Shown: positions 36,694 through 50,260, counted from the first letter of the stretch. The stretch is DNA of 64,000 bases from Candidatus Melainabacteria bacterium 17Bon1m (GCA_032128875.1 JAVLKG010000011.1:1-64000); one strand, 5' to 3'. The notes: generated by a model from the letters alone, not told the origin. A program made the numbers and translations.

Positions 36694-38499
36694 GTGACAG
36701 CCGACCCTAATCTCATCCGCAACTTTTCCATCATCGCCCACATCGACCATGGCAAATCGACGCTGGCCGATCGTTTGTTGGAATACACCAAGACTATCGC
36801 CAAGCGCGACATGCAGGCTCAAATCCTCGACACCATGGATATCGAGCGCGAGCGCGGCATCACCATCAAAGCGCAGCCGGCGCGAATGGAATACACGGCG
36901 CAGGATGGCAAGCAATATATTTTGAATCTGATCGACACGCCTGGGCACGTCGACTTCGGTTATGAAGTCTCACGCAGTCTTGCTGCATGCGAAGGCGCGT
37001 TGCTAGTAGTTGATTCTAGTCAGGGCGTTGAAGCGCAAACTTTGGCAAACGTCCACCTTGCGGTGGAGAACAATTTGGAAATCGTGCCAATTATCAACAA
37101 GATCGACTTGCCTAGTGCCGATCCTGAGCGCATCCGCGCTGAGATTGAAGAAGTTATCGGGCTTGATGCCAGCCATGCTGTTTTGGCTTCGGCAAAGAAT
37201 CATATCGGTATTGAAGAAACCCTCGAAGCGATCGTGAATTTCATAGGACCCCCGCAAAATACAGTCGACAAGCCGCTTCGCGCGCTTGTATTTGACAGCT
37301 ATTTTGAAAGCTATCGCGGCATCATCGTTTATTTCCGCGTTAAAGATGGCGAAATCAAAATGGGCGACAAGATTCGCTTCATGAATAACAAGTCCGATTT
37401 CGAGGTCACGGAGTTGGGCGTTCTGCGTCCACAGCAGTACAAGGTCGACAGATTAGGACCCGGTGAAGTAGGTTATCTCGCCGCGTCTATCAAAGACGTA
37501 GCGACGCTCGTCGGCGATACGATTACACTCCAGGACAGACCTGCACCCGAGCCATTGCCGGGTTATCGCCCCGCAAAGCCGATGGTTTTCGCCGGACTCT
37601 ATCCAGTCGACAACGAGCAGTATCCGGATCTCCGCGAAGCGCTCGAAAAGCTGATTCTCAATGACTCTTCCTTGCAGTACGAACCAGAAACTTCCGAGGC
37701 GCTCGGTTTCGGATTTCGTTGTGGATTCCTTGGTTTGCTGCACATGGAAATCATTCAGGAGCGTCTTGAGCGCGAGTACGACTTGCGACTGATTACGACG
37801 GCTCCCTCAGTTGTATATCGCGTGACGAAGACAGATGGCAGTGTTCTTATGATTGAGAACCCTGCATTTTTGCCCGATCCAAACTATCGTACGATGATTG
37901 AAGAGCCATACGTGTCTGCTTCAATCATGGTGCCGAATGACTTCGTCGGGCAGATTATGGAACTCTGCCAGGGGCGCCGCGGTATCTTCCAAGATATGAA
38001 GTACTTGGATCCGCGTCGTGCGATGCTGCATTACGAGCTGCCTTTGGCAGAAATCATCACTGATTTCTTCGACCAATTGAAGTCGCGTTCTCGCGGTTAT
38101 GCAAGTCTCGATTATCACTTTCATGAGTACCGTGAATCCAATCTCGTGAAGCTGGATATTCTCATCAGCGGCGAACCTTGTGATGCCCTCTCTGCGATTG
38201 TTCACCGTGAGCGCGCTGCAAGTTATGGTCGTTTGCTTGCAGAGAAATTGAAAAAGCTTATCCCCAGACAGATGTTTGAAGTTCCGATTCAAGCGGCAAT
38301 CGGCGGCAAGATTATTGCGCGTGAAACAGTTTCAGCCCAGCGCAAAGACGTTTTGTCGAAGTGCTACGGTGGTGACATCTCCCGTAAGCGCAAACTCTTG
38401 GAAAAACAAAAAGAAGGTAAGAAGCGGATGAAGTCCGTTGGACGCGTCGAGATTCCGCAGGAAGCATTTATGGCTGTGCTCAAGCTTGAGGAAGACTAA
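36694..38499 (+). CDS. lepA: Elongation factor 4
   Basis: [62 protein letters not shown]. Confidence 0.99.
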
Positions 38500-39533
38500 T
38501 GCCCAAGGGCAAATCCGGTAAATCGGGCGACGATAAGCCAAAGAAGTCGGCGGCGAAAAAATCGGAACCTAAACCATCTGAGCAAGAACATTTGCAAGCG
38601 CAGAAGTTTATTGATGCTGGCGGCGGTGAGCCGGAAGTTTTTGATGAGGAAATCCAACTCGAGGATTCTCGCGTTTTCAAAATGCTGCAGGGACTACAGC
38701 TCTCTCCAGAGGAAGCACGTGAAGCAGCTGTCAGGCAGCGTAACTTGCTTATTGAATCCTGGAACACTCGCGATGAGCTTTACCGCGAATTATTCGGCGA
38801 GCCTAGATACGTAACTCCTGGTCCCTATGCACCGCCACCGGTGCTAAAGGCTGAGGATGTTATTTTGCCTGAGGATCAAGTAGAGCGCGGCGAAACTGGT
38901 GATCCTGGAAATCCTAATCTCGACGAGCAGCACCTCAATATCCTCGTCTACGCACCGGATCCGACACGCCCTTACTGGACCTATGTCACCGCTGGATTGA
39001 GCAGTCCCTGGCTGCAAGATGCACCTGCGGAAGTTACTGGCTTTGGCTGCGAGATCATGATTAAGACAAAGGAAGATATGCCATGGGCTGCGCAAATTCT
39101 TCGCACCCTGGCGTTCTACATTCTCAATCATGCCGGCACCCTATCGCCTGGTGTTCGAATAGATTTGAACGGACCGATCATTCCGGGCTCCAACTCGAAG
39201 CTCAGTAACATCTTTATTTGGTATCCAGACGATGCACCTGATTGTTGGTATTACCTACCTTCTGGTGGCTTCGGTTTGTTCATAGCTATCGGCATCACGC
39301 CAGACGAAAGACAATTCGCAGAGTCCATTGAAGAATATGGCACTTGGTGCATCCAACAAGTACTTCGCCAGATGGGACACGATCAAGTCACCGATCCTTA
39401 TCGCGGCACGGTTATGGATCAAGAAGGAATTGGCCTTGCTTTGTTGAAGACAAAATCCTTCGCAGATAACTTCCGTGCGAATGTTGCATACGGTAGTGAA
39501 CCCTCATATGGCAATGAGTCTTTTGAGTCGTAA
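38499..39533 (+). CDS. Suppressor-of-fused (SuFu) domain protein
   Basis: YWTYVTAGLS, GFGCEIMIKT, WAAQILRTLA.Y, IGITPDE; TAATG overlap with lepA. Confidence 0.8.
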   Translation: MPKGKSGKSGDDKPKKSAAKKSEPKPSEQEHLQAQKFIDAGGGEPEVFDEEIQLEDSRVFKMLQGLQLSPEEAREAAVRQRNLLIESWNTRDELYRELFGEPRYVTPGPYAPPPVLKAEDVILPEDQVERGETGDPGNPNLDEQHLNILVYAPDPTRPYWTYVTAGLSSPWLQDAPAEVTGFGCEIMIKTKEDMPWAAQILRTLAFYILNHAGTLSPGVRIDLNGPIIPGSNSKLSNIFIWYPDDAPDCWYYLPSGGFGLFIAIGITPDERQFAESIEEYGTWCIQQVLRQMGHDQVTDPYRGTVMDQEGIGLALLKTKSFADNFRANVAYGSEPSYGNESFES

Positions 39534-39914: not shown

Positions 39915-40157
39915 CTAGCGGACGTTCTGCTCTTCATCTTTACGCTTTGCCCACTTACCCATAAGCTCACAGGCGACCGCAACCATGTCGGGGTCAAACT
40001 CTGAGATGTAATCTCGATAGTCGTCGAATTTTGGGTCGGACTTCAAAGTTTCAAAAATGTCGTGCTCCGATTGCCCACTTGCGAGCAGCTCGAGAAGTGC
40101 GTCTTGGAACTTTGCTAGCGTTTCCTCCTCGTTCGCTTTTATTTCTTTATCAGGCAT
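39915..40157 (-). CDS. Small MNIO-associated protein (80 aa)
   Basis: ATG overlaps the MNIO stop (ATGCCTGA), GGAG RBS; helical LAKFQDALLELL...FDPDMVAVACELMGKW. Confidence 0.75.
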   Translation of the reverse strand: MPDKEIKANEEETLAKFQDALLELLASGQSEHDIFETLKSDPKFDDYRDYISEFDPDMVAVACELMGKWAKRKDEEQNVR

Positions 40158-41028
40158 AGCAGAACTCCAAAATTTCTTCCATCGTTTCGAAGTCTTCGCG
40201 GAATTCTTCTTGTGCTTCAGGTTCCATCATCGTGTAACCGAGTCTTTCCATAATCACAAATTCAATGTTGGGACACAGTTTCAGTGCAAGCGTTGCGAGA
40301 TTGAAAACCTCCTGAGGCACGGCATCATCGTGCGTATCACGGCGCACAGCAGCTCGTTTACCCGATATGGAATGGCTCCATGTGCCGCCGGAGAGATGAA
40401 TTTCGCGTACTTTAGCCAGCGGATATGAGTTCAAAAGTTCTAGCTCTGCGACGCCAAAATTTGCTAATTGGCAGTAAATATTGTGCAAGTCTAATAGCAA
40501 GAAACCATCTACCGCGGAAATCAATTGGTCGATAAAATCTCCCTGCCTTTTCACATCTTCGAGGCTGAATGCAAATGCTAGATTCTCCAGTCCCACCGGG
40601 CATTGCGTTGCATCAGCGTAGCGCTTCAGCATCTCCTTGCCTTTGCGCAAGGACTCGGCATTCATTGGTACCGCAAGTGGTGCACCCTGCGCAATTGGTC
40701 CTGCTTCTGAAAAACCAAAATGCTCTGATGCATGAACATATTTTCGAGCCTTGAATTCTTCTCTTGCGTTATCGAGCCATTTCTCTTGGCGTTGTGAAAA
40801 CCGTGCAGAAAGTGGCGATAGATTGACACCGTGCCCTGTCAAAGCCTTCTTCGCGCTGAATTCGTCGAGTATTTTGATACACCATTCGCTGACTTGTGCA
40901 CCATTCCATGAAAAGTCAAAACTCCACTCGATTGCTTTTACTTGCCCGTTTTGAAACAGCGGAACCGTCGCCTGCTCGAAGTCTTCCGTCGGCATCAACG
41001 ATAGTCCAAGTTTAGGTTTGTATTGCAT
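40150..41028 (-). CDS. DUF692 / multinuclear non-heme iron oxidative enzyme (MNIO), ChrH-like
   Basis: Metal-ligand motifs GHG, SEHFGF, VGLENLAF, LLLDLHNIYCQ, EIHLSGG, RRDTHD, IMER; IEWSFD and RRDTHD recall the chryseobasin enzyme ChrH. Confidence 0.9.
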   Translation of the reverse strand: MQYKPKLGLSLMPTEDFEQATVPLFQNGQVKAIEWSFDFSWNGAQVSEWCIKILDEFSAKKALTGHGVNLSPLSARFSQRQEKWLDNAREEFKARKYVHASEHFGFSEAGPIAQGAPLAVPMNAESLRKGKEMLKRYADATQCPVGLENLAFAFSLEDVKRQGDFIDQLISAVDGFLLLDLHNIYCQLANFGVAELELLNSYPLAKVREIHLSGGTWSHSISGKRAAVRRDTHDDAVPQEVFNLATLALKLCPNIEFVIMERLGYTMMEPEAQEEFREDFETMEEILEFCYA

Positions 41029-41058
41029 CCGTCCACCTGGTCTCGTTCTGCGAAATAC

Positions 41059-42078
41059 CTAACCCATACCGCAATCTACGGCATACATATCTTGCTGTAA
41101 AGTCCACCATCTCAGGTGACCGCAAGCACCGTCAACTGGATAGAGTATTTTTTCATCTCTAATCCCAACCAAGTTATACAGGACATTTTTTTCGCTATCA
41201 GCGAGTGACTTCTTCCCAAGTTGCTCGTACCAGAGTGCCATATCTCGGTGCATCTTTCGCCTAAGATGTTGATCTGGTCCTAGGCGATCTGCAAGTGTGA
41301 TTGCTCTTAACCGGAGCTTTTCGCTTTTGTTGAAGTCGCTTTTAGTAAATGGATTAACATGTATTTTTCGCTCGCCGATTGCGCTTTTCGGCTCCCTATC
41401 CGTAATGCTGATCGGAATAATGTCCATTGCAAGCAAGTTCAATGCGGTGCATGCAGATTCAATTTCTTGTATGTCGATTTGCGTCTTTGCCTCACAAGTT
41501 TTAACTGCATCATCAATGCGAGTTTTGCATTCCGAAATTCCAGTAGTGTTTTCAGTTTTCTCGTAAATTCGCATGGCGATAAAGCATATTATCAACTTCG
41601 AGTACTTGTCTGTCATCGCATCTAGTTGCGACACTGCTAGATCGATTGCGGAATTTGCCAAAGCTCTATTTTGCTTCTTCTCTTCAGTGTTCGTTTTATG
41701 CGGCTCTGGCTTATTGTCTTTGAAAACAAAGAAAAATTTTCCTGTAAAAACATCTTGCGCCCAGCCATCAAGGGTGTTTCTGAATCTTCTGGGAATTTGG
41801 AAGGCTTTCGTTTGGTTCGCTAGTTCAGAAAATCTCGCTTCAAGATCTTTCTTATCGCATCCAGCCAAATAGTCTCTTGCAAGTGTCAGTAGAAAGAATG
41901 CTCTTATTTCAGGAGACAGATGTGAATTGTTGGCGATTTTTTGTCCGATGAGAGAATGTGACTCTGATTTGTTCTCGTTCGCTGCACTGACAGGTAGGAG
42001 TGCATTAAGTAGGCTGCTTGCAAAGACAATTGCTAGTAACGCCTTTTTCTGCCGTTCGTTTTTGCTGGGTGTTTTCAA
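41059..42078 (-). CDS. Exported helical protein with CGMG C-terminus, paralog A (candidate MNIO substrate)
   Basis: Signal peptide ending VSA-A; ends CGHLRWWTLQQDMYAVDCGMG-stop. Confidence 0.8.
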   Translation of the reverse strand: MKTPSKNERQKKALLAIVFASSLLNALLPVSAANENKSESHSLIGQKIANNSHLSPEIRAFFLLTLARDYLAGCDKKDLEARFSELANQTKAFQIPRRFRNTLDGWAQDVFTGKFFFVFKDNKPEPHKTNTEEKKQNRALANSAIDLAVSQLDAMTDKYSKLIICFIAMRIYEKTENTTGISECKTRIDDAVKTCEAKTQIDIQEIESACTALNLLAMDIIPISITDREPKSAIGERKIHVNPFTKSDFNKSEKLRLRAITLADRLGPDQHLRRKMHRDMALWYEQLGKKSLADSEKNVLYNLVGIRDEKILYPVDGACGHLRWWTLQQDMYAVDCGMG

Positions 42079-42155
42079 AGTCTAAAACCTAATCACACTT
42101 TGTCCGTTTGATTTTGGAGTCGCAGCGAAGCAGAGATACTTCCCTTCATTCTATG

Positions 42156-43190
42156 CTAACCCATGCCGCAGCCACCCCGAATCCGGAGTTCCTTGGTTTC
42201 CCACCACACAATATGTCCGCATCCTGCTTGCCGAGGATATAAAAGGCTGTCGCTTTTGTCACCAACCAGTTGAAAAAGTAGTTGTTTCTGCTGCTCAGAC
42301 TTTTCCTTTTTGCCAAGTTCTCTGTACCAGAGTGTCAAATTCCTGTGCGCCATCCTTCGTGCATGATCAATCGCGGGCAACTTATCGAGAATTGCTGCTG
42401 CCCTTAATCTTAGGCTTTCGCTCTCAAGAAAATTTCTTTCGGAGTATGATTCTAATGGCTTGGTTTTACCTCCCCATGGATAACTAGGGTCGGCTATGCG
42501 AAGCGAAATAGACTCGTTTGACATCAAGTTAAGCACCGAGGCTGTTGCTTTCCTTTCCTCTGTGGATGCAGAAGGGTTCTTTTCGCAATCGCTAATTGCG
42601 GTGTTCAACAGTATTTCGCATTTACGCGCTTCGATTGTGTCTCCAAGCTTGGTAAATACTCTCAACGCAATGAAGTGAAGATTCAACTTCGTGAATGATT
42701 TGGAAGCTTTCTCTAGTTGCCTGACAGCAGATTTTGCGGATTTGTCGGCTAATCTCATATTTTCAGCTGACGTTGTCCACACTTTCTTGTTTGACTTTGT
42801 GACTGAATTGGGCGGATACGATGTTCCATTTTCATCAGAATCAATTTGATCTGCCCACGAGACAAATATTCCTTCTCTTTTTTCGACGTTTTCCAGAAAA
42901 GAAAGATTGTCTCTGAGGTTTGCATATCTCGCATTGATTGACTGGGTCTCTGTTCCGATCAAAAAGTCCGTAGCGACTCTCAGCAGATAATAGGCTCTAA
43001 CCTCCGGAGAAAGATCTTGGTTTGTTGACAGTTGTGCAATAACGGAATCTTGTGCTGCAGTAATGTTAGTCGAGTTGGAATTATTGTCCGCAGAAAGAGA
43101 AATTTGCGGAAAGAGAATTCCGCTTGCGAAAGCAATTGCAATCAACGATCTTGTTCTATTATTTTTTTCGTCGGGCTTTATTTTTCTCAT
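42156..43190 (-). CDS. Exported helical protein with CGMG C-terminus, paralog B
   Basis: Signal peptide; ends CGHIVWWETKELRIRGGCGMG-stop. Confidence 0.8.
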   Translation of the reverse strand: MRKIKPDEKNNRTRSLIAIAFASGILFPQISLSADNNSNSTNITAAQDSVIAQLSTNQDLSPEVRAYYLLRVATDFLIGTETQSINARYANLRDNLSFLENVEKREGIFVSWADQIDSDENGTSYPPNSVTKSNKKVWTTSAENMRLADKSAKSAVRQLEKASKSFTKLNLHFIALRVFTKLGDTIEARKCEILLNTAISDCEKNPSASTEERKATASVLNLMSNESISLRIADPSYPWGGKTKPLESYSERNFLESESLRLRAAAILDKLPAIDHARRMAHRNLTLWYRELGKKEKSEQQKQLLFQLVGDKSDSLLYPRQAGCGHIVWWETKELRIRGGCGMG

Positions 43191-43247
43191 TGGTTCTTGA
43201 TTCTCTCAGCCGCGGATTTTAGGCGTATATCTTTGTCCCAATTCGGT

Positions 43248-44285
43248 TTAACCCATGCCACAGCCAATAAGCGCGCCTTTGTAGGATTTGCCTGTTTGCC
43301 ACCAACTAACATGCCCACAACCACCGGGTTTAGCATACAGAATATCTTCGTCTTCAGTGCCAACAAGTTGGAACAAAATTTGTTTTTGCACTTTTGCCAA
43401 TTCTGGTTTGTTCAAGGCTAAATACCAAAGAACCAGGTCTCTATGCGTTTTCCTGCGTTCATGACTGCTCGGCGATAGCCGATCGATTATTGCTGCAGCT
43501 CTTAGCTTGAGACTTTCACTTTCTCTAAAATCGGCCTCGCTGAATGGCTTAACTCTCGGTACTCGCGCCCCGGGAGTAGTCTCAGGAGAGAAATCCGGTA
43601 TTCTGACAGGAATTTTTCTGTTTGCCATCACGTTCAAAATCGTTGAGACTGCCACTGCCTCTCCTCCGATGACGGACGGATTTTTTTCACATGACAGGAT
43701 CGAGTTGTCTAGGTATTTCTTGCATCGCTGAACGCCGCTCTCATTACCGGTTCTTTTAAAGAGATTTTCTGCGATTAAATACATGTCTAAAATCATTGTT
43801 TTGTTTGAGACTTTTTCTAGTTGCTTCAGAGCCGCCAGAACTGCTGAATCTGCAGCTTTAATTATGGACGGCGAGCTTGTCTGGCGCGCAGATTTGCCTG
43901 CTGTGTAACTCATCCCGTGCTTGTTACCCTCGGTATTTTCGACGACTTGAAGTACCCAATCATCCAGAACTTTGCCTCTCTTGAATAGCAAGTTTCCGTG
44001 CATTGGCTGGATACTTCTGAAGCTGTCATCTACGATCTTTTGATCGTTGTTTGCAAGATATGCTTCAGCCAGGCGAAGCAAATAGTATGCACGAACCTCT
44101 GCGGGCATTTCTGTGCGTTTCGCAATCATTTGTATCGCTGATTCATTCAATTGCGCCGGTTCCGGTGTTTTTTGCAATTTGACAGGTGCATTCCCCTCTG
44201 CAGGAAGTTGGTGCTGAAGAATTCCAGCTGCGAACATGATTGCGAGAAGCGTTTCTCGTTTAGAAGCTCTTCTATTTCTTTGCAT
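43248..44285 (-). CDS. Exported helical protein with CGMG C-terminus, paralog C
   Basis: Signal-like N-terminus; ends CGHVSWWQTGKSYKGALIGCGMG-stop. Confidence 0.8.
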   Translation of the reverse strand: MQRNRRASKRETLLAIMFAAGILQHQLPAEGNAPVKLQKTPEPAQLNESAIQMIAKRTEMPAEVRAYYLLRLAEAYLANNDQKIVDDSFRSIQPMHGNLLFKRGKVLDDWVLQVVENTEGNKHGMSYTAGKSARQTSSPSIIKAADSAVLAALKQLEKVSNKTMILDMYLIAENLFKRTGNESGVQRCKKYLDNSILSCEKNPSVIGGEAVAVSTILNVMANRKIPVRIPDFSPETTPGARVPRVKPFSEADFRESESLKLRAAAIIDRLSPSSHERRKTHRDLVLWYLALNKPELAKVQKQILFQLVGTEDEDILYAKPGGCGHVSWWQTGKSYKGALIGCGMG

Positions 44286-44498
44286 GCAATTAAGTCTCCA
44301 TCGGTACTTCCCGGAAGTGTTTTTACTCTCGCAAAATGCGAGGAGTAAGACATAGGAAACGACAGAAGTTGCTTAGTAACTTTCTTACGGTCAGCCGGCA
44401 GCTTTGCTCTCCGGACGATTTTACGATATTAAAAACCCTACCAGCATTTTCCTACGGCGAACACCGTGAAATTACTATATTTTTGGTAAGTCTTGGCG

Positions 44499-45449
44499 CT
44501 ACCCCATCCCGCACGCTGGGCAGGGCGGTGCTGGGGGAAACAGCGTGTTGCGGTCGGTTGTGTGCATCAGGTCGCTCAAAATCTTCGTAGCAAACTCTTC
44601 TTTCTTCGTATCGCCGTATAAGTGGTACCAAAAGACCATATTCCGATGCGCATCAATTCTTGTCGGATCGGCAGGCGGAAGGCGGTCGTAGGCATTTAGC
44701 GCTCGCAAATGATAGTCTTCTGCGAGTTTGAAATCCTTGTGTTTTATTGTGCCCGGCTTTGTTGGCGAATCGTCCGGGACTACCTGCATTGGTTGCATCA
44801 TACGTGCAGCGCGGAATGCCGGTGAAGGCGCGTACAACTGCGCCATACGGAGCAACATCATTGCTAGTGAAAGATACTCTTCGCGTTTTAAATTGATGTC
44901 AGACTCGAGAAGTTTTAGCTCGCGATCGTAAGCTGCTGTCGTCTCTCGTTCTTCCGCCTCCATTCCTGCCATTCGATAACCTTGAATGGCACGCAAACCA
45001 TAGTAAAGTCTTTCGAGTGATGCGGCTGGATACTTATTGGCATACGGTTGACCATCATGTAAAACCTGTTGGGCTTTTGCTTTCAACTCGCGGCGCAAGC
45101 TGTCTGAGTACGATTTTTCAGCGCTTGCAGTGAGCAAAGCTAGTGCGTAGGTGCTAAACATATTCGGCAACGGATTGTTCTTAGGATTGGCGGTTGCCTT
45201 TTGAGCCACGACTGCTTTGTTAAACGTCTCATCGGCTTCTTTTATCATGCCGTTTCTTGCGTACATGCTGCAAAGATTGGCTAGGCGGATAGGGTATTGC
45301 GCATTGTCTTTTCCCTGCTGCGCGATAAATTCCTCGAACTGTTTTTCGGCAATTTTGACTGCCGCTTTGTCTGCGCGCGCTGGTAAAGAACCAACCATAA
45401 TTCCCAAGGCGACTAATGAAGTGACTACCTTTGAAGATGTGTTTTTCAT
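44499..45449 (-). CDS. Exported TPR-like protein ending CPACGMG, paralog D
   Basis: Signal peptide ending ARA-D; ends LFPPAPPCPACGMG-stop. Confidence 0.85.
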   Translation of the reverse strand: MKNTSSKVVTSLVALGIMVGSLPARADKAAVKIAEKQFEEFIAQQGKDNAQYPIRLANLCSMYARNGMIKEADETFNKAVVAQKATANPKNNPLPNMFSTYALALLTASAEKSYSDSLRRELKAKAQQVLHDGQPYANKYPAASLERLYYGLRAIQGYRMAGMEAEERETTAAYDRELKLLESDINLKREEYLSLAMMLLRMAQLYAPSPAFRAARMMQPMQVVPDDSPTKPGTIKHKDFKLAEDYHLRALNAYDRLPPADPTRIDAHRNMVFWYHLYGDTKKEEFATKILSDLMHTTDRNTLFPPAPPCPACGMG

Positions 45450-45492
45450 TAGACCCTCGAAATATTCAATACACCAGTGTGCTCAAATGTAA

Positions 45493-46473
45493 TTATCCCC
45501 TGCCGCACCCATGGCAAGGATCTTTGGGAGGAAAGAGGACATTCTTATCGGTCGAGTGCAATAACTTACTCAAAATCTGCGTCTGGGCTTTTTCCTGGTC
45601 GGTTTGTTTGAAAAATGCATACCATTTTGCAAGGCGACGGTGTGCCGCTATTCTCCTCTGGTCGCTTTCAGGCAGTTTGTCGTAAAACGTTATTGCTCGT
45701 AGCTCGTATTTTTCTCCGGCTTTGAACTTCGATAGGCGTGTCGACGACGGGCTTAAGAATGGTTCGCTATCGTTAACTACTTCCTTGGTTGCCATTGCGG
45801 TGAAATCTGTATTGGATGGAGATTCACAAAGGAATTGCGACACAGCGATCAAGTTTTTTGCAACTCGTACCGCTTCTTCGTTTGACAATTTTGGAGTACT
45901 TCCAAGTGCGTCGACCAGCGCATCAAATGACCTCAAGACAATGTTCATTTCGCGCTGTTTTCCCAACGATTTATAGAATCCGATTGCGTTGACCATGAAA
46001 CTCAAGCGTTGCGCCGAATTAATCGGAAGTTTGCTTACCAATTTCAGTCCTTCTGCAACAACTTCTTCGGCGTTTTGTAAGTCGGCCCTGTACGCGCTTT
46101 CCAGCCCTGCGTAATTCTGTGATTCAGCGGGCGTCATAAATCTTGCAATCTGTGGTCGGTAGGTAAGACTTGTTGCCCAGTTCATCATTGTGCCCGGCAC
46201 ATCAAAGTTCTTTATCGTCGATCCGATTTCTATTGCCTTGCGATATGTCTCATTAGCCTCCTTTCTTTGACCGTTTGCTTTGTACGCGTTGGCGAGTTTC
46301 ATTAGTTGATAAACATACGAGGGGCTGGCCGTTTGTCCTCGTGATTCAAACGTTTTTACGCTTGCTTCCGCGGTTTGAAGAGCCGCAAGATTGTCTGCGC
46401 GTGCGTAATGACTTGAAAGACCCATGCTGCATAACAGCAATGAGCTGAAGACGAGGCGAGACTTATTTTTCAT
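45493..46473 (-). CDS. Exported TPR-like protein ending CHGCGRG, paralog E
   Basis: Start MKNKSRL at 46473 after AAGGA; signal peptide ending ARA-D; ends LFPPKDPCHGCGRG-stop. Confidence 0.8.
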   Translation of the reverse strand: MKNKSRLVFSSLLLCSMGLSSHYARADNLAALQTAEASVKTFESRGQTASPSYVYQLMKLANAYKANGQRKEANETYRKAIEIGSTIKNFDVPGTMMNWATSLTYRPQIARFMTPAESQNYAGLESAYRADLQNAEEVVAEGLKLVSKLPINSAQRLSFMVNAIGFYKSLGKQREMNIVLRSFDALVDALGSTPKLSNEEAVRVAKNLIAVSQFLCESPSNTDFTAMATKEVVNDSEPFLSPSSTRLSKFKAGEKYELRAITFYDKLPESDQRRIAAHRRLAKWYAFFKQTDQEKAQTQILSKLLHSTDKNVLFPPKDPCHGCGRG

Positions 46474-49934: not shown

Positions 49935-50179
49935 GTGGGGGCGCGTTGCACGCGCCCTTTTTTTCTGTCTTCGTGGGGGCGCGTTGCACGCGCCCTTTTT
50001 TTTGTTTCGTGGGGGCGCGTTGCACGCGCCCTTTTTTTCTGTCTTTCGTGGGGGCGCGTTGCACGCGCCCTTTTTCTTGTTTCGTGGGGGCGCGTTGCAT
50101 GCGCCCTTTTTTTCTGTCTTTCGTGGGGGCGCGTTGCACGCGCCCTTTTTCTTGTTTCGTGGGGGCACGTTGAGCGCCC
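49935..50179 (+). repeat. Tandem array of seven REP-like palindromes
   Basis: GTGGGGGCGCGTTGCACGCGCCC starting at 49935, 49973, 50009, 50048, 50084, 50123 and 50159 (last degenerate), joined by T-rich linkers; spacing alternates 38-39 and 36 bp. Confidence 0.9.
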
Positions 50180-50260
50180 TCTGTCTTAAATCTGGGAGGG
50201 GCGAGCGCTCCAGCCGGTCGATGCATGGCATCTACCCTACACTAAAAGGGCTTGCTTACC

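Follow-up and report, generated by a model that had tools for sequence, protein, structure and literature searches.

We analyzed a 64,000-nucleotide stretch of DNA from Candidatus Melainabacteria bacterium 17Bon1m (GCA_032128875.1, JAVLKG010000011.1:1-64000; hereafter the window), a Melainabacteria/Obscuribacterales genome belonging to the non-photosynthetic relatives of Cyanobacteria, and found that seven co-directional genes on its minus strand, running from 46473 to 39915, appear to form a working system of the recently described Mel type. In 5' to 3' order, the genes encode five substrate paralogs, an iron enzyme of the MNIO family and a protein of 80 amino acids (aa). By analogy with homologous systems, we put at about 0.85 the probability that the enzyme, encoded in two pieces, modifies at least the two paralogs ending in CxxCG(M/R)G in the cytoplasm before Sec export, forming a macrocycle plus a hydantoin with a net mass change of -4 Da. 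The idea that an MNIO modifies full-size secreted proteins is already published, systems of this kind having come out in 2025-26. What is new beyond the published main texts, as far as these go, is a second class of C-terminal tail with a long loop between its two cysteines, to which the majority of the protein family belongs. Such tails are not mentioned in the main texts of PMC13056109, its preprint or 10.64898/2026.10.27.762324 (the supplements may show them), and the literature on CGMG/MNIO, Melainabacteria MNIOs and MelHc/DybH/ChrH-like proteins yielded nothing beyond these works. The evidence from the present analysis consists of gene order, homology, conserved ligands, invariance of both cysteines and co-occurrence, whereas the chemistry on CPACGMG, the requirement for MelHc and the modification of a 34-kDa protein were established by experiment on homologs, as reported in the main text of PMC13056109.

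According to the main text of that paper (PNAS 2026), enzymes of the ChrH family possess an additional helical bundle of ~7.8 kDa at the C-terminus; in 'Cyanobacteria' this bundle is a separate protein, and several such clusters encode 30-40 kDa tetratricopeptide repeat (TPR) proteins ending in CPACGMG. One of them, MelA1 from a Candidatus Melainabacteria metagenome-assembled genome (MAG), is a dimeric 34 kDa protein with a signal peptidase I (SPI) signal, TPR repeats and the CPACGMG end. It gains the -4 Da modification (macrocycle plus hydantoin) only when both MelH and MelHc are co-expressed, and MelHc co-purifies with MelH. In the preprint version, the motif underwent modification on GFP to which it had been appended, and the enzyme tolerated a ring enlarged by one residue (CPAACGMG). 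The cluster in the window is likened here to this mel cluster (Candidatus Melainabacteria isolate SJ512; MelA1, MelH and MelHc) by its published description. Both contain a 30-40 kDa protein with a CPACGMG end (secreted and TPR-type in the mel cluster, with a signal-peptide-like start and a TPR-like body in the window) and an MNIO split into a core and a bundle of ~8 kDa, both come from the same taxonomic group, and neither includes a protease or transporter gene. However, only CPACGMG-ended proteins are described in the main text, whereas three of the five paralogs in the window have long-loop tails. The original prediction for this stretch, made from the sequence, had proposed a ChrH-like MNIO acting on full-size exported proteins at their C-termini, and the published experiments on the homologous MelA1, MelH and MelHc show exactly such a modification. 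On the other hand, the chemistry that it took as established, with ChrI as a partner and with S-adenosylmethionine (SAM), no longer holds: ChrI can be dispensed with and the Mel product carries no methyl group (main text of PMC13056109), and methylation by SAM is spontaneous rather than enzymatic (10.64898/2026.10.27.762324).

The MNIO of the window matched the PF05114 family (MbnB_TglH_ChrH; 98.7 bits against a cut-off of 25, E = 4.3e-28), and its best NCBIfam model was ChrH (NF050165, 332.6 bits), compared with 85.6 bits for BufB and 66.4 bits for HvfB. Among 25 aligned ChrH-type MNIOs, residues H66, H99, E102, H103, E148, N149, D180, H182, N183, E209, H211, D231, H233 and E261 were invariant in all members. 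Six of these (H66, H103, D180, H211, D231 and H233) are the counterparts of the Fe-site ligands H65/H102, D179/H210 and D228/H230 of DybH, numbered as in the mechanism preprint in which those six were mutated (10.64898/2026.10.27.762324). A scan of one genome per species retrieved 16 genes with 72-92% identity to the window MNIO, mostly from MAGs labelled Candidatus Melainabacteria or Obscuribacterales, followed by ChrH of Chryseobacterium with 45-50% identity. A 36-row maximum-likelihood tree placed the MNIO of the window in a 17-row Melainabacteria clade (support 97/100) that adjoins the ChrH-type clades of Bacteroidota and Verrucomicrobiota; together with the best-matching model, this places it inside the ChrH subfamily, as initially expected. 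In PMC12452194, chryseobasin MNIOs form a sequence cluster of their own. The coordinates, the PF05114 match and the ligand alignment agree with the first description of this gene as an MNIO with intact metal motifs lying 30 bp downstream of five paralogs that share its direction and measure 316-345 aa. Melainabacteria-type clusters with a 76-80% identical MNIO and long-loop substrates also occur on contigs that bear the labels 'Actinobacteria bacterium' and 'Planktothrix sp.' (loci L004 and L012; also L117); as they fall inside the Melainabacteria clade of the tree, these are probably mis-binned or mislabelled MAG contigs.

A second MNIO of the same genome (locus L081; contig C6, 183274-184056) was of the BufB type (312.8 bits against a cut-off of 310) and stood far away in the tree, where its branch measured about 10 changes per site. 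Flanked downstream by an HvfC-like partner gene and upstream by small open reading frames (ORFs), it belongs to a bufferin-type cluster unrelated to the mel-type operon. Bufferins (BufA/BufB/BufC) resemble the system described here in that an MNIO acts on cysteines of signal-peptide-bearing ribosomal products before export, but they differ in MNIO clade, in their thiooxazole chemistry, in the use of a DUF2063/HvfC-type partner and in the small size of their substrates.

The 80-aa ORF starts within the MNIO gene, overlapping its stop by 8 nt (ATGCCTGA). We found an equivalent small ORF after 22 of 24 MNIOs shorter than 355 aa and after 14 of the 16 Melainabacteria-type ones. The misses were in both cases L012 and L013, where the MNIO starts were over-called, and the small ORF of L012 was seen in a later substrate-centred survey. 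The fused enzymes of Bacteroidota are 362-378 aa long. When a 23-row profile of the small ORFs was compared by hhalign with the C-terminal 90 aa of 25 fused ChrH proteins from Chryseobacterium, the match had a probability of 90% (E = 1.6e-6) and fell on the last 55 residues of the fused C-termini, and AlphaFold2 predicted four helices for the 80-aa protein (pLDDT 76.7). Judging from this profile alignment and the structural model, the 80-aa protein is the helical bundle from the C-terminus of ChrH, here encoded by a gene of its own, and the equivalent of MelHc. The window MNIO itself covers positions 1-283 of the 363-position ChrH model. A complex prediction for the MNIO, the 80-aa protein, residues 230-345 of paralog 3 and three Fe, run without controls, returned no answer (scores of 0.15 and 0.19 against a mark of 0.32) and counts neither for nor against such a complex.

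All five paralogs end in CG(M/R)G, and they form two subfamilies: paralogs 1-2, ending in LFPP..PC-x-x-CG(R/M)G, and paralogs 3-5, ending in LYP....CGHxxWW-x10-12-CGMG. Identity is 32% between paralogs 1 and 2 (E = 8e-44) and 30-35% among paralogs 3-5 (35% for 3 versus 4, E = 2e-69), whereas similarity across the subfamilies is mostly confined to the last ~75-120 residues, with the exception of paralogs 1 and 3, which align over ~298 residues at 23% identity. All of them had originally been taken to carry chryseobasin-type tails. The CxxCGxG spacing supports this for two, one with CPACGMG (paralog 2) and one with CHGCGRG, which lacks the Pro (paralog 1), but not for the other three, in which 16-18 residues separate the cysteines. 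The 7-residue tail motif of paralog 2 is identical to that modified in MelA1, ChrA and DybA; in NCBIfam, this protein matched only ChrA-type models, through its tail and below threshold (NF050125, 18 bits with the cut-off at 40).

Long-loop tails were not restricted to the window. The 16 Melainabacteria-type MNIO loci (L001-L016) contained 44 upstream ORFs with CG(M/R)G-type tails, one to six per locus, of which 31 were long-loop, 12 short-loop (CxxC or CxxxC) and one intermediate; 11 loci had long-loop tails only, two had short-loop tails only and three had both. We aligned 38 of these ORFs with the five paralogs of the window, leaving out one mis-started ORF, two truncated ones and three of locus L011 (among them two with tails that were already represented), and both Cys and the two Gly of CGxG were invariant in all 43 members. 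A search of 1.84 billion proteins with the 43-member profile returned 351 representatives with E <= 0.001, of which 239 had E <= 1e-10, and the CGxG end was present in 158 of 163 database relatives. Among 198 distinct family proteins, 153 were long-loop and 30 short-loop, in lists biased by the mostly long-loop profile. The long-loop form in the family can be written as CGxxxWW-x8-16-CG(M/R)G. In the 153 long-loop tails, the first Cys was conserved in 100%, the Gly after it in 94% and the paired Trp residues in 96% and 99%, and the terminal C, G, M and G in 100%, 100%, 92% and 100%, respectively; on the other hand, no residue exceeded 31% at the positions tallied among the 8-16 residues between WW and the terminal CG. 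The first Cys lay 21 residues from the end in 101 of the 153 tails and 19-25 residues from it overall. In both tail classes, the first Cys lies at a constant distance from an L-[YF]-P motif. Thus, the extra residues of the long-loop tails are an insertion inside the would-be ring.

The N-termini of the paralogs combine K/R, a hydrophobic stretch and an A-x-A-like site (for example, MKNKSRLVFSSLLLCSMGLSSHYARA/D in paralog 1), and the best 12-aa Kyte-Doolittle window reached at least 1.8 in 39 of the 43 aligned family members. No lipobox was present in the paralogs of the window. AlphaFold2 modelled paralog 3, with the 43-row alignment, as an all-helical repeat protein (pLDDT 84.3, pTM 0.79) whose last ~25 residues were of low confidence. 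The best of the weak Foldseek rows were TPR domains (BtubC and kinesin light chain; E = 0.016-0.1, TM about 0.3), and a TPR-like helical repeat seems a reasonable description of the modelled body, with no specific function indicated. A word-indexed homolog search with one paralog returned 24 proteins, which, where named, were called only 'hypothetical protein'.

The co-occurrence of large proteins and enzyme was nearly complete in both directions. Homologs of the large proteins stood beside the MNIO gene in all 16 Melainabacteria-type loci, and a full-length one was upstream of it in 15 (L006 had only a 159-aa ORF). Starting from the substrates, a profile from a 22-row long-loop alignment found 20 loci, mostly labelled Melainabacteria or Obscuribacterales and none convincingly of another group, and 19 of these had the MNIO and the bundle gene directly downstream; in 16 of the 19, only long-loop proteins were found directly upstream of the enzyme. 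Other flanking genes were each common to at most five of the 16 MNIO-centred loci, all close relatives, and no conserved protease, transporter or methyltransferase was found among the flanking genes of these loci. The conserved module is composed of substrates, core and bundle only. A whole-assembly scan (7.55 Mb) found no short ChrA-like precursor near the MNIO or elsewhere, in agreement with what the original prediction had reported for the cluster. In contrast, a short CxxCGxG-ended precursor (63-136 aa) was located next to the enzyme in 62 of 64 non-Melainabacteria loci, including those of Verrucomicrobiota in which the enzyme is likewise split. Large substrates, like long loops, were thus peculiar to Melainabacteria among the 80 loci examined.

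The whole assembly contained 178,349 stop-to-stop frames with a length of 25 aa or more; only 21 of them ended in CGxG, and only seven of these gave ORFs of at least 100 aa. Five of the seven were the adjacent paralogs of the window, an arrangement far beyond chance. A sixth family member was unlinked (contig C1, 267335-268222, minus strand): it has 295 aa, a signal-like start and the end VCHGCGLG, and it shares 29% identity with paralogs 1 and 2 (E about 1e-27). The ORFs around it look secreted but are unrelated. One of five long-loop-only genomes that were searched whole contained three further unlinked long-loop genes. In genomes G002, G003 and G004, unlinked secreted proteins of ~200 aa (L095, L096 and L099) ending in ..ILF(R/H)K..ICLGCGMG matched the family over their last ~90 residues only and represent a shorter architecture with the same tail. 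An Obscuribacteraceae locus (L115), where a family-like gene without the CGxG end lies beside a 32-residue MNIO remnant, may be a decayed cluster. The closest relative of the window cluster (92% identical MNIO) has kept counterparts of both short-loop genes, whereas the three long-loop genes are replaced by two others with tails CPGMCGLG and CNGRCGMG, which implies that the substrate set turns over quickly. Per-gene G+C in the cluster was 0.425-0.492, compared with 0.506 in 19 kb of flanks. The lower G+C and the differing substrate genes suggest fast turnover or acquisition.

Comparison with other characterized systems helps to delimit the type. ChrA/ChrH of Chryseobacterium (chryseobasin; PMC10214503, re-examined in PMC13056109 and 10.64898/2026.10.27.762324) share with the window cluster the MNIO subfamily, the metal ligands, the CPACGMG core (paralog 2) and an SPI signal peptide, for which the window proteins have SPI-like N-termini. 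However, in ChrH the bundle is fused to the core within one protein of 363-365 aa, whereas the window enzyme is split, and ChrA-type precursors in Chryseobacterium loci are 68-99 aa long, compared with 316-345 aa for the substrates here; moreover, a methylated +10 Da chryseobasin product was seen in E. coli, whereas the Mel product is unmethylated. DybA/DybH of Dyadobacter crusticola, a DAG-RiPP lipoprotein system, share the -4 Da macrocycle-plus-hydantoin chemistry, the lack of an MbnC/TglI-type partner and, as far as the published text goes, the recognition of a minimal C-terminal motif. DybA differs in being a short lipoprotein precursor with a lipobox Cys, whereas the window proteins have SPI-like sites.

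On the basis of these data, we propose the following mechanism. The five tandem genes would supply Sec-exported, all-helical TPR-like proteins of about 33-37 kDa, and the two translationally coupled downstream genes would supply an enzyme in two pieces, a TIM-barrel iron core and the 80-aa helical bundle. In the cytoplasm, this MelH/MelHc pair would bind the free C-terminal tail and use O2 to oxidise the last Cys to a thioaldehyde; the Cys-Gly-Met/Arg backbone would be rearranged to a hydantoin, leaving an episulfide-like electrophilic intermediate open to attack by the thiol of the upstream Cys, which would close the macrocycle. In the mechanism preprint, the second Cys is likewise oxidised first, to the thioaldehyde, and macrocyclisation by the first Cys comes last (10.64898/2026.10.27.762324). 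The net change would be -4 Da, with one free thiol remaining and no enzymatic methylation, after which the proteins would be exported and their signal peptides cut by SPI. We infer that one enzyme acts on all five proteins of the window and on the unlinked sixth. The long-loop proteins are probably substrates as well, because their CGMG is strictly conserved and because they alone adjoin the enzyme in most loci. It is possible, at slightly less than even odds, that the distant Cys of these tails closes an intramolecular ring of roughly 18-20 residues around the conserved Trp-Trp and the hypervariable stretch. Still more tentatively, the dominant natural substrates might be tails of the form L-Y-P-x4-C-G-x3-W-W-(8-16 variable)-C-G-M-G and not CPACGMG, with a ring of about 16-22 residues closed between the invariant cysteines.

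Several observations weigh against parts of this proposal. With 332.6 bits, the window MNIO did not reach the equivalog cut-off of the NCBIfam ChrH model (600 bits); the shortfall is explained by the inclusion in this model of a domain that is encoded separately in the window, and the enzyme is accordingly classed within the ChrH/DybH subfamily but not among the ChrH equivalogs. A pairwise BLASTP comparison between the 80-aa ORF and a fused ChrH gave no match (E = 40), the two being linked by profile methods only. The N-termini appear to be SPI-like signal peptides by a hydrophobicity heuristic only, and the earlier description of them as signal-peptide-like holds in this heuristic sense. The description of the bodies as helical and TPR-like stood in part: they were all-helical in AlphaFold2, but the Pfam TPR models all remained under their curated cut-offs (TPR_12, 20.2 against 30.1; TPR_MalT, 20.1 against 45), and Foldseek found no match in the PDB at E <= 0.001. 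As for the long-loop tails, the only ring sizes tested in print, in the main text of PMC13056109 and its preprint, are those of CxxC and CPAACGMG, and a spacing of 16-18 residues is beyond that range. Finally, three of the five long-loop-only genomes searched whole also encode the unlinked ~200-aa protein ending in ICLGCGMG; with a classical substrate elsewhere in the genome, the long-loop proteins need not be the target of the enzyme. We had considered long-loop-only loci as proof that long-loop tails are the sole substrates and rejected this for the same reason, an unlinked short-loop protein being present in these three genomes.

Other explanations are conceivable. The long-loop proteins might be oxidised at CGMG and form no intramolecular ring, the intermediate being captured by another thiol, either of a dimer partner (giving a covalent dimer) or of a small molecule, or the upstream Cys-Gly might be a second, independent site. 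DybA without its first Cys still undergoes the -4 Da chemistry and glutathione captures the intermediate, so that any nearby thiol can react (10.64898/2026.10.27.762324), and MelA1 is a dimer in the main text of PMC13056109. The Gly after the first Cys, seen in 94% of the long-loop tails, mimics the terminal Cys-Gly, and the low confidence of the modelled tail means that no geometry favours ring closure. However, the invariance of the first Cys and its fixed register after L-Y-P speak against capture by an outside thiol, and the narrow range of its distance to the end fits a defined intramolecular ring better. We consider this explanation rather unlikely.

Less probable still is that only the CxxCG(M/R)G proteins, namely paralogs 1 and 2 and the unlinked member on contig C1, are substrates, and that the Cys pair of the long-loop proteins serves as a disulfide or metal site after export. 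Such a restriction would agree with the fact that only CxxC and CxxxC rings have been demonstrated, as far as the published texts go, and with the unlinked short-loop protein in three of the five long-loop-only genomes; yet the other two contained no short-loop protein at all, only long-loop proteins stood beside the enzyme in 11 of 16 MNIO loci and 16 of 19 profile-found loci, and the terminal CG[MR]G was equally strict in the long-loop class, a conservation that a plain disulfide would not require. That none of the large proteins is a substrate, the tail serving for sorting or anchoring without relation to the MNIO, which would act on an unrecognised small peptide, is hardly credible: it is contradicted by the modification of homologous MelA1 in E. 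coli (main text of PMC13056109), no short C..CGxG-ended ORF was found near the MNIO or elsewhere in the assembly, and the co-occurrence described above is near-complete both ways. Modification of the large proteins by the split enzyme thus remains the preferred reading, with substrate status for the long-loop class considered likely and its ring closure held more tentatively.

The genes of the cluster are listed in Table 1. The spacing between successive paralogs, in gene order, is 43, 213, 57 and 77 bp. A promoter and terminator scan gave five promoter-like sites (8.7 expected) and ten terminator-like sites (9.6 expected), and operon boundaries were not signalled. Expression as read from three runs labelled RNA-Seq was dropped: the whole 9.6-kb stretch lay in one 13-kb contig that spans convergent genes, and the sample was shared with a DNA run, so that such contigs are no proof of transcription.

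Table 1. Genes of the Mel-type cluster in the window, in gene order
Feature	Position	Strand	Length	Remarks
Substrate paralog 1	45493..46473	-	326 aa	Length from the ATG used in the original prediction; frame open to 46620; short-loop tail ..LFPPKDPCHGCGRG, end PCHGCGRG
Substrate paralog 2	44499..45449	-	316 aa	Short-loop tail ..LFPPAPPCPACGMG, end PCPACGMG
Substrate paralog 3	43248..44285	-	345 aa	Long-loop tail CGHVSWWQTGKSYKGALIGCGMG; Cys-Cys spacing 18 residues; CGHVSWW..GCGMG
Substrate paralog 4	42156..43190	-	344 aa	Long-loop tail CGHIVWWETKELRIRGGCGMG; Cys-Cys spacing 16 residues; CGHIVWW..GCGMG
Substrate paralog 5	41059..42078	-	339 aa	TTG start; long-loop tail CGHLRWWTLQQDMYAVDCGMG; CGHLRWW..DCGMG
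MNIO, MelH-like core	40150..41028	-	292 aa	TIM-barrel part only; all Fe-ligand positions present
MelHc-like four-helix protein (predicted)	39915..40157	-	80 aa	Start overlaps MNIO stop

Convergent with the operon is a gene on the plus strand (38499-39533) for a SUFU (Suppressor of fused) domain protein of 344 aa (PF05076, 72.2 bits), which is followed downstream by a 108-aa ORF without family match. Elsewhere in the window, positions 49935-50180 form a G+C-rich tandem repeat of 6.6 copies of 36 nt (or 3.3 copies of 75 nt) with 89-96% matches, from which long repeat-derived ORFs are open on both strands.

The window mainly adds a well-preserved example of an iron enzyme of the type known from RiPPs (peptides made by the ribosome and then post-translationally modified) that would modify full-size secreted proteins; it also helps to define the minimal module and indicates that substrates can be unlinked from the enzyme. 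If the enzyme closes the long loop, the known ring size for this chemistry would extend from 4-5 to about 20 residues, and the family would offer a naturally occurring scaffold in which folded proteins bear variable loops stapled by an enzyme. If the long-loop tails are indeed the dominant natural substrates, the ring would have roughly five times the size of any so far demonstrated with enzymes of this family, and the C-terminus of a secreted helical-repeat protein would carry a covalently stapled, Trp-Trp-anchored hypervariable loop. The tandem arrays, with one to six genes per genome and fast turnover, would then represent diversified displayed loops, which might, for example, bind varied targets outside the cell.

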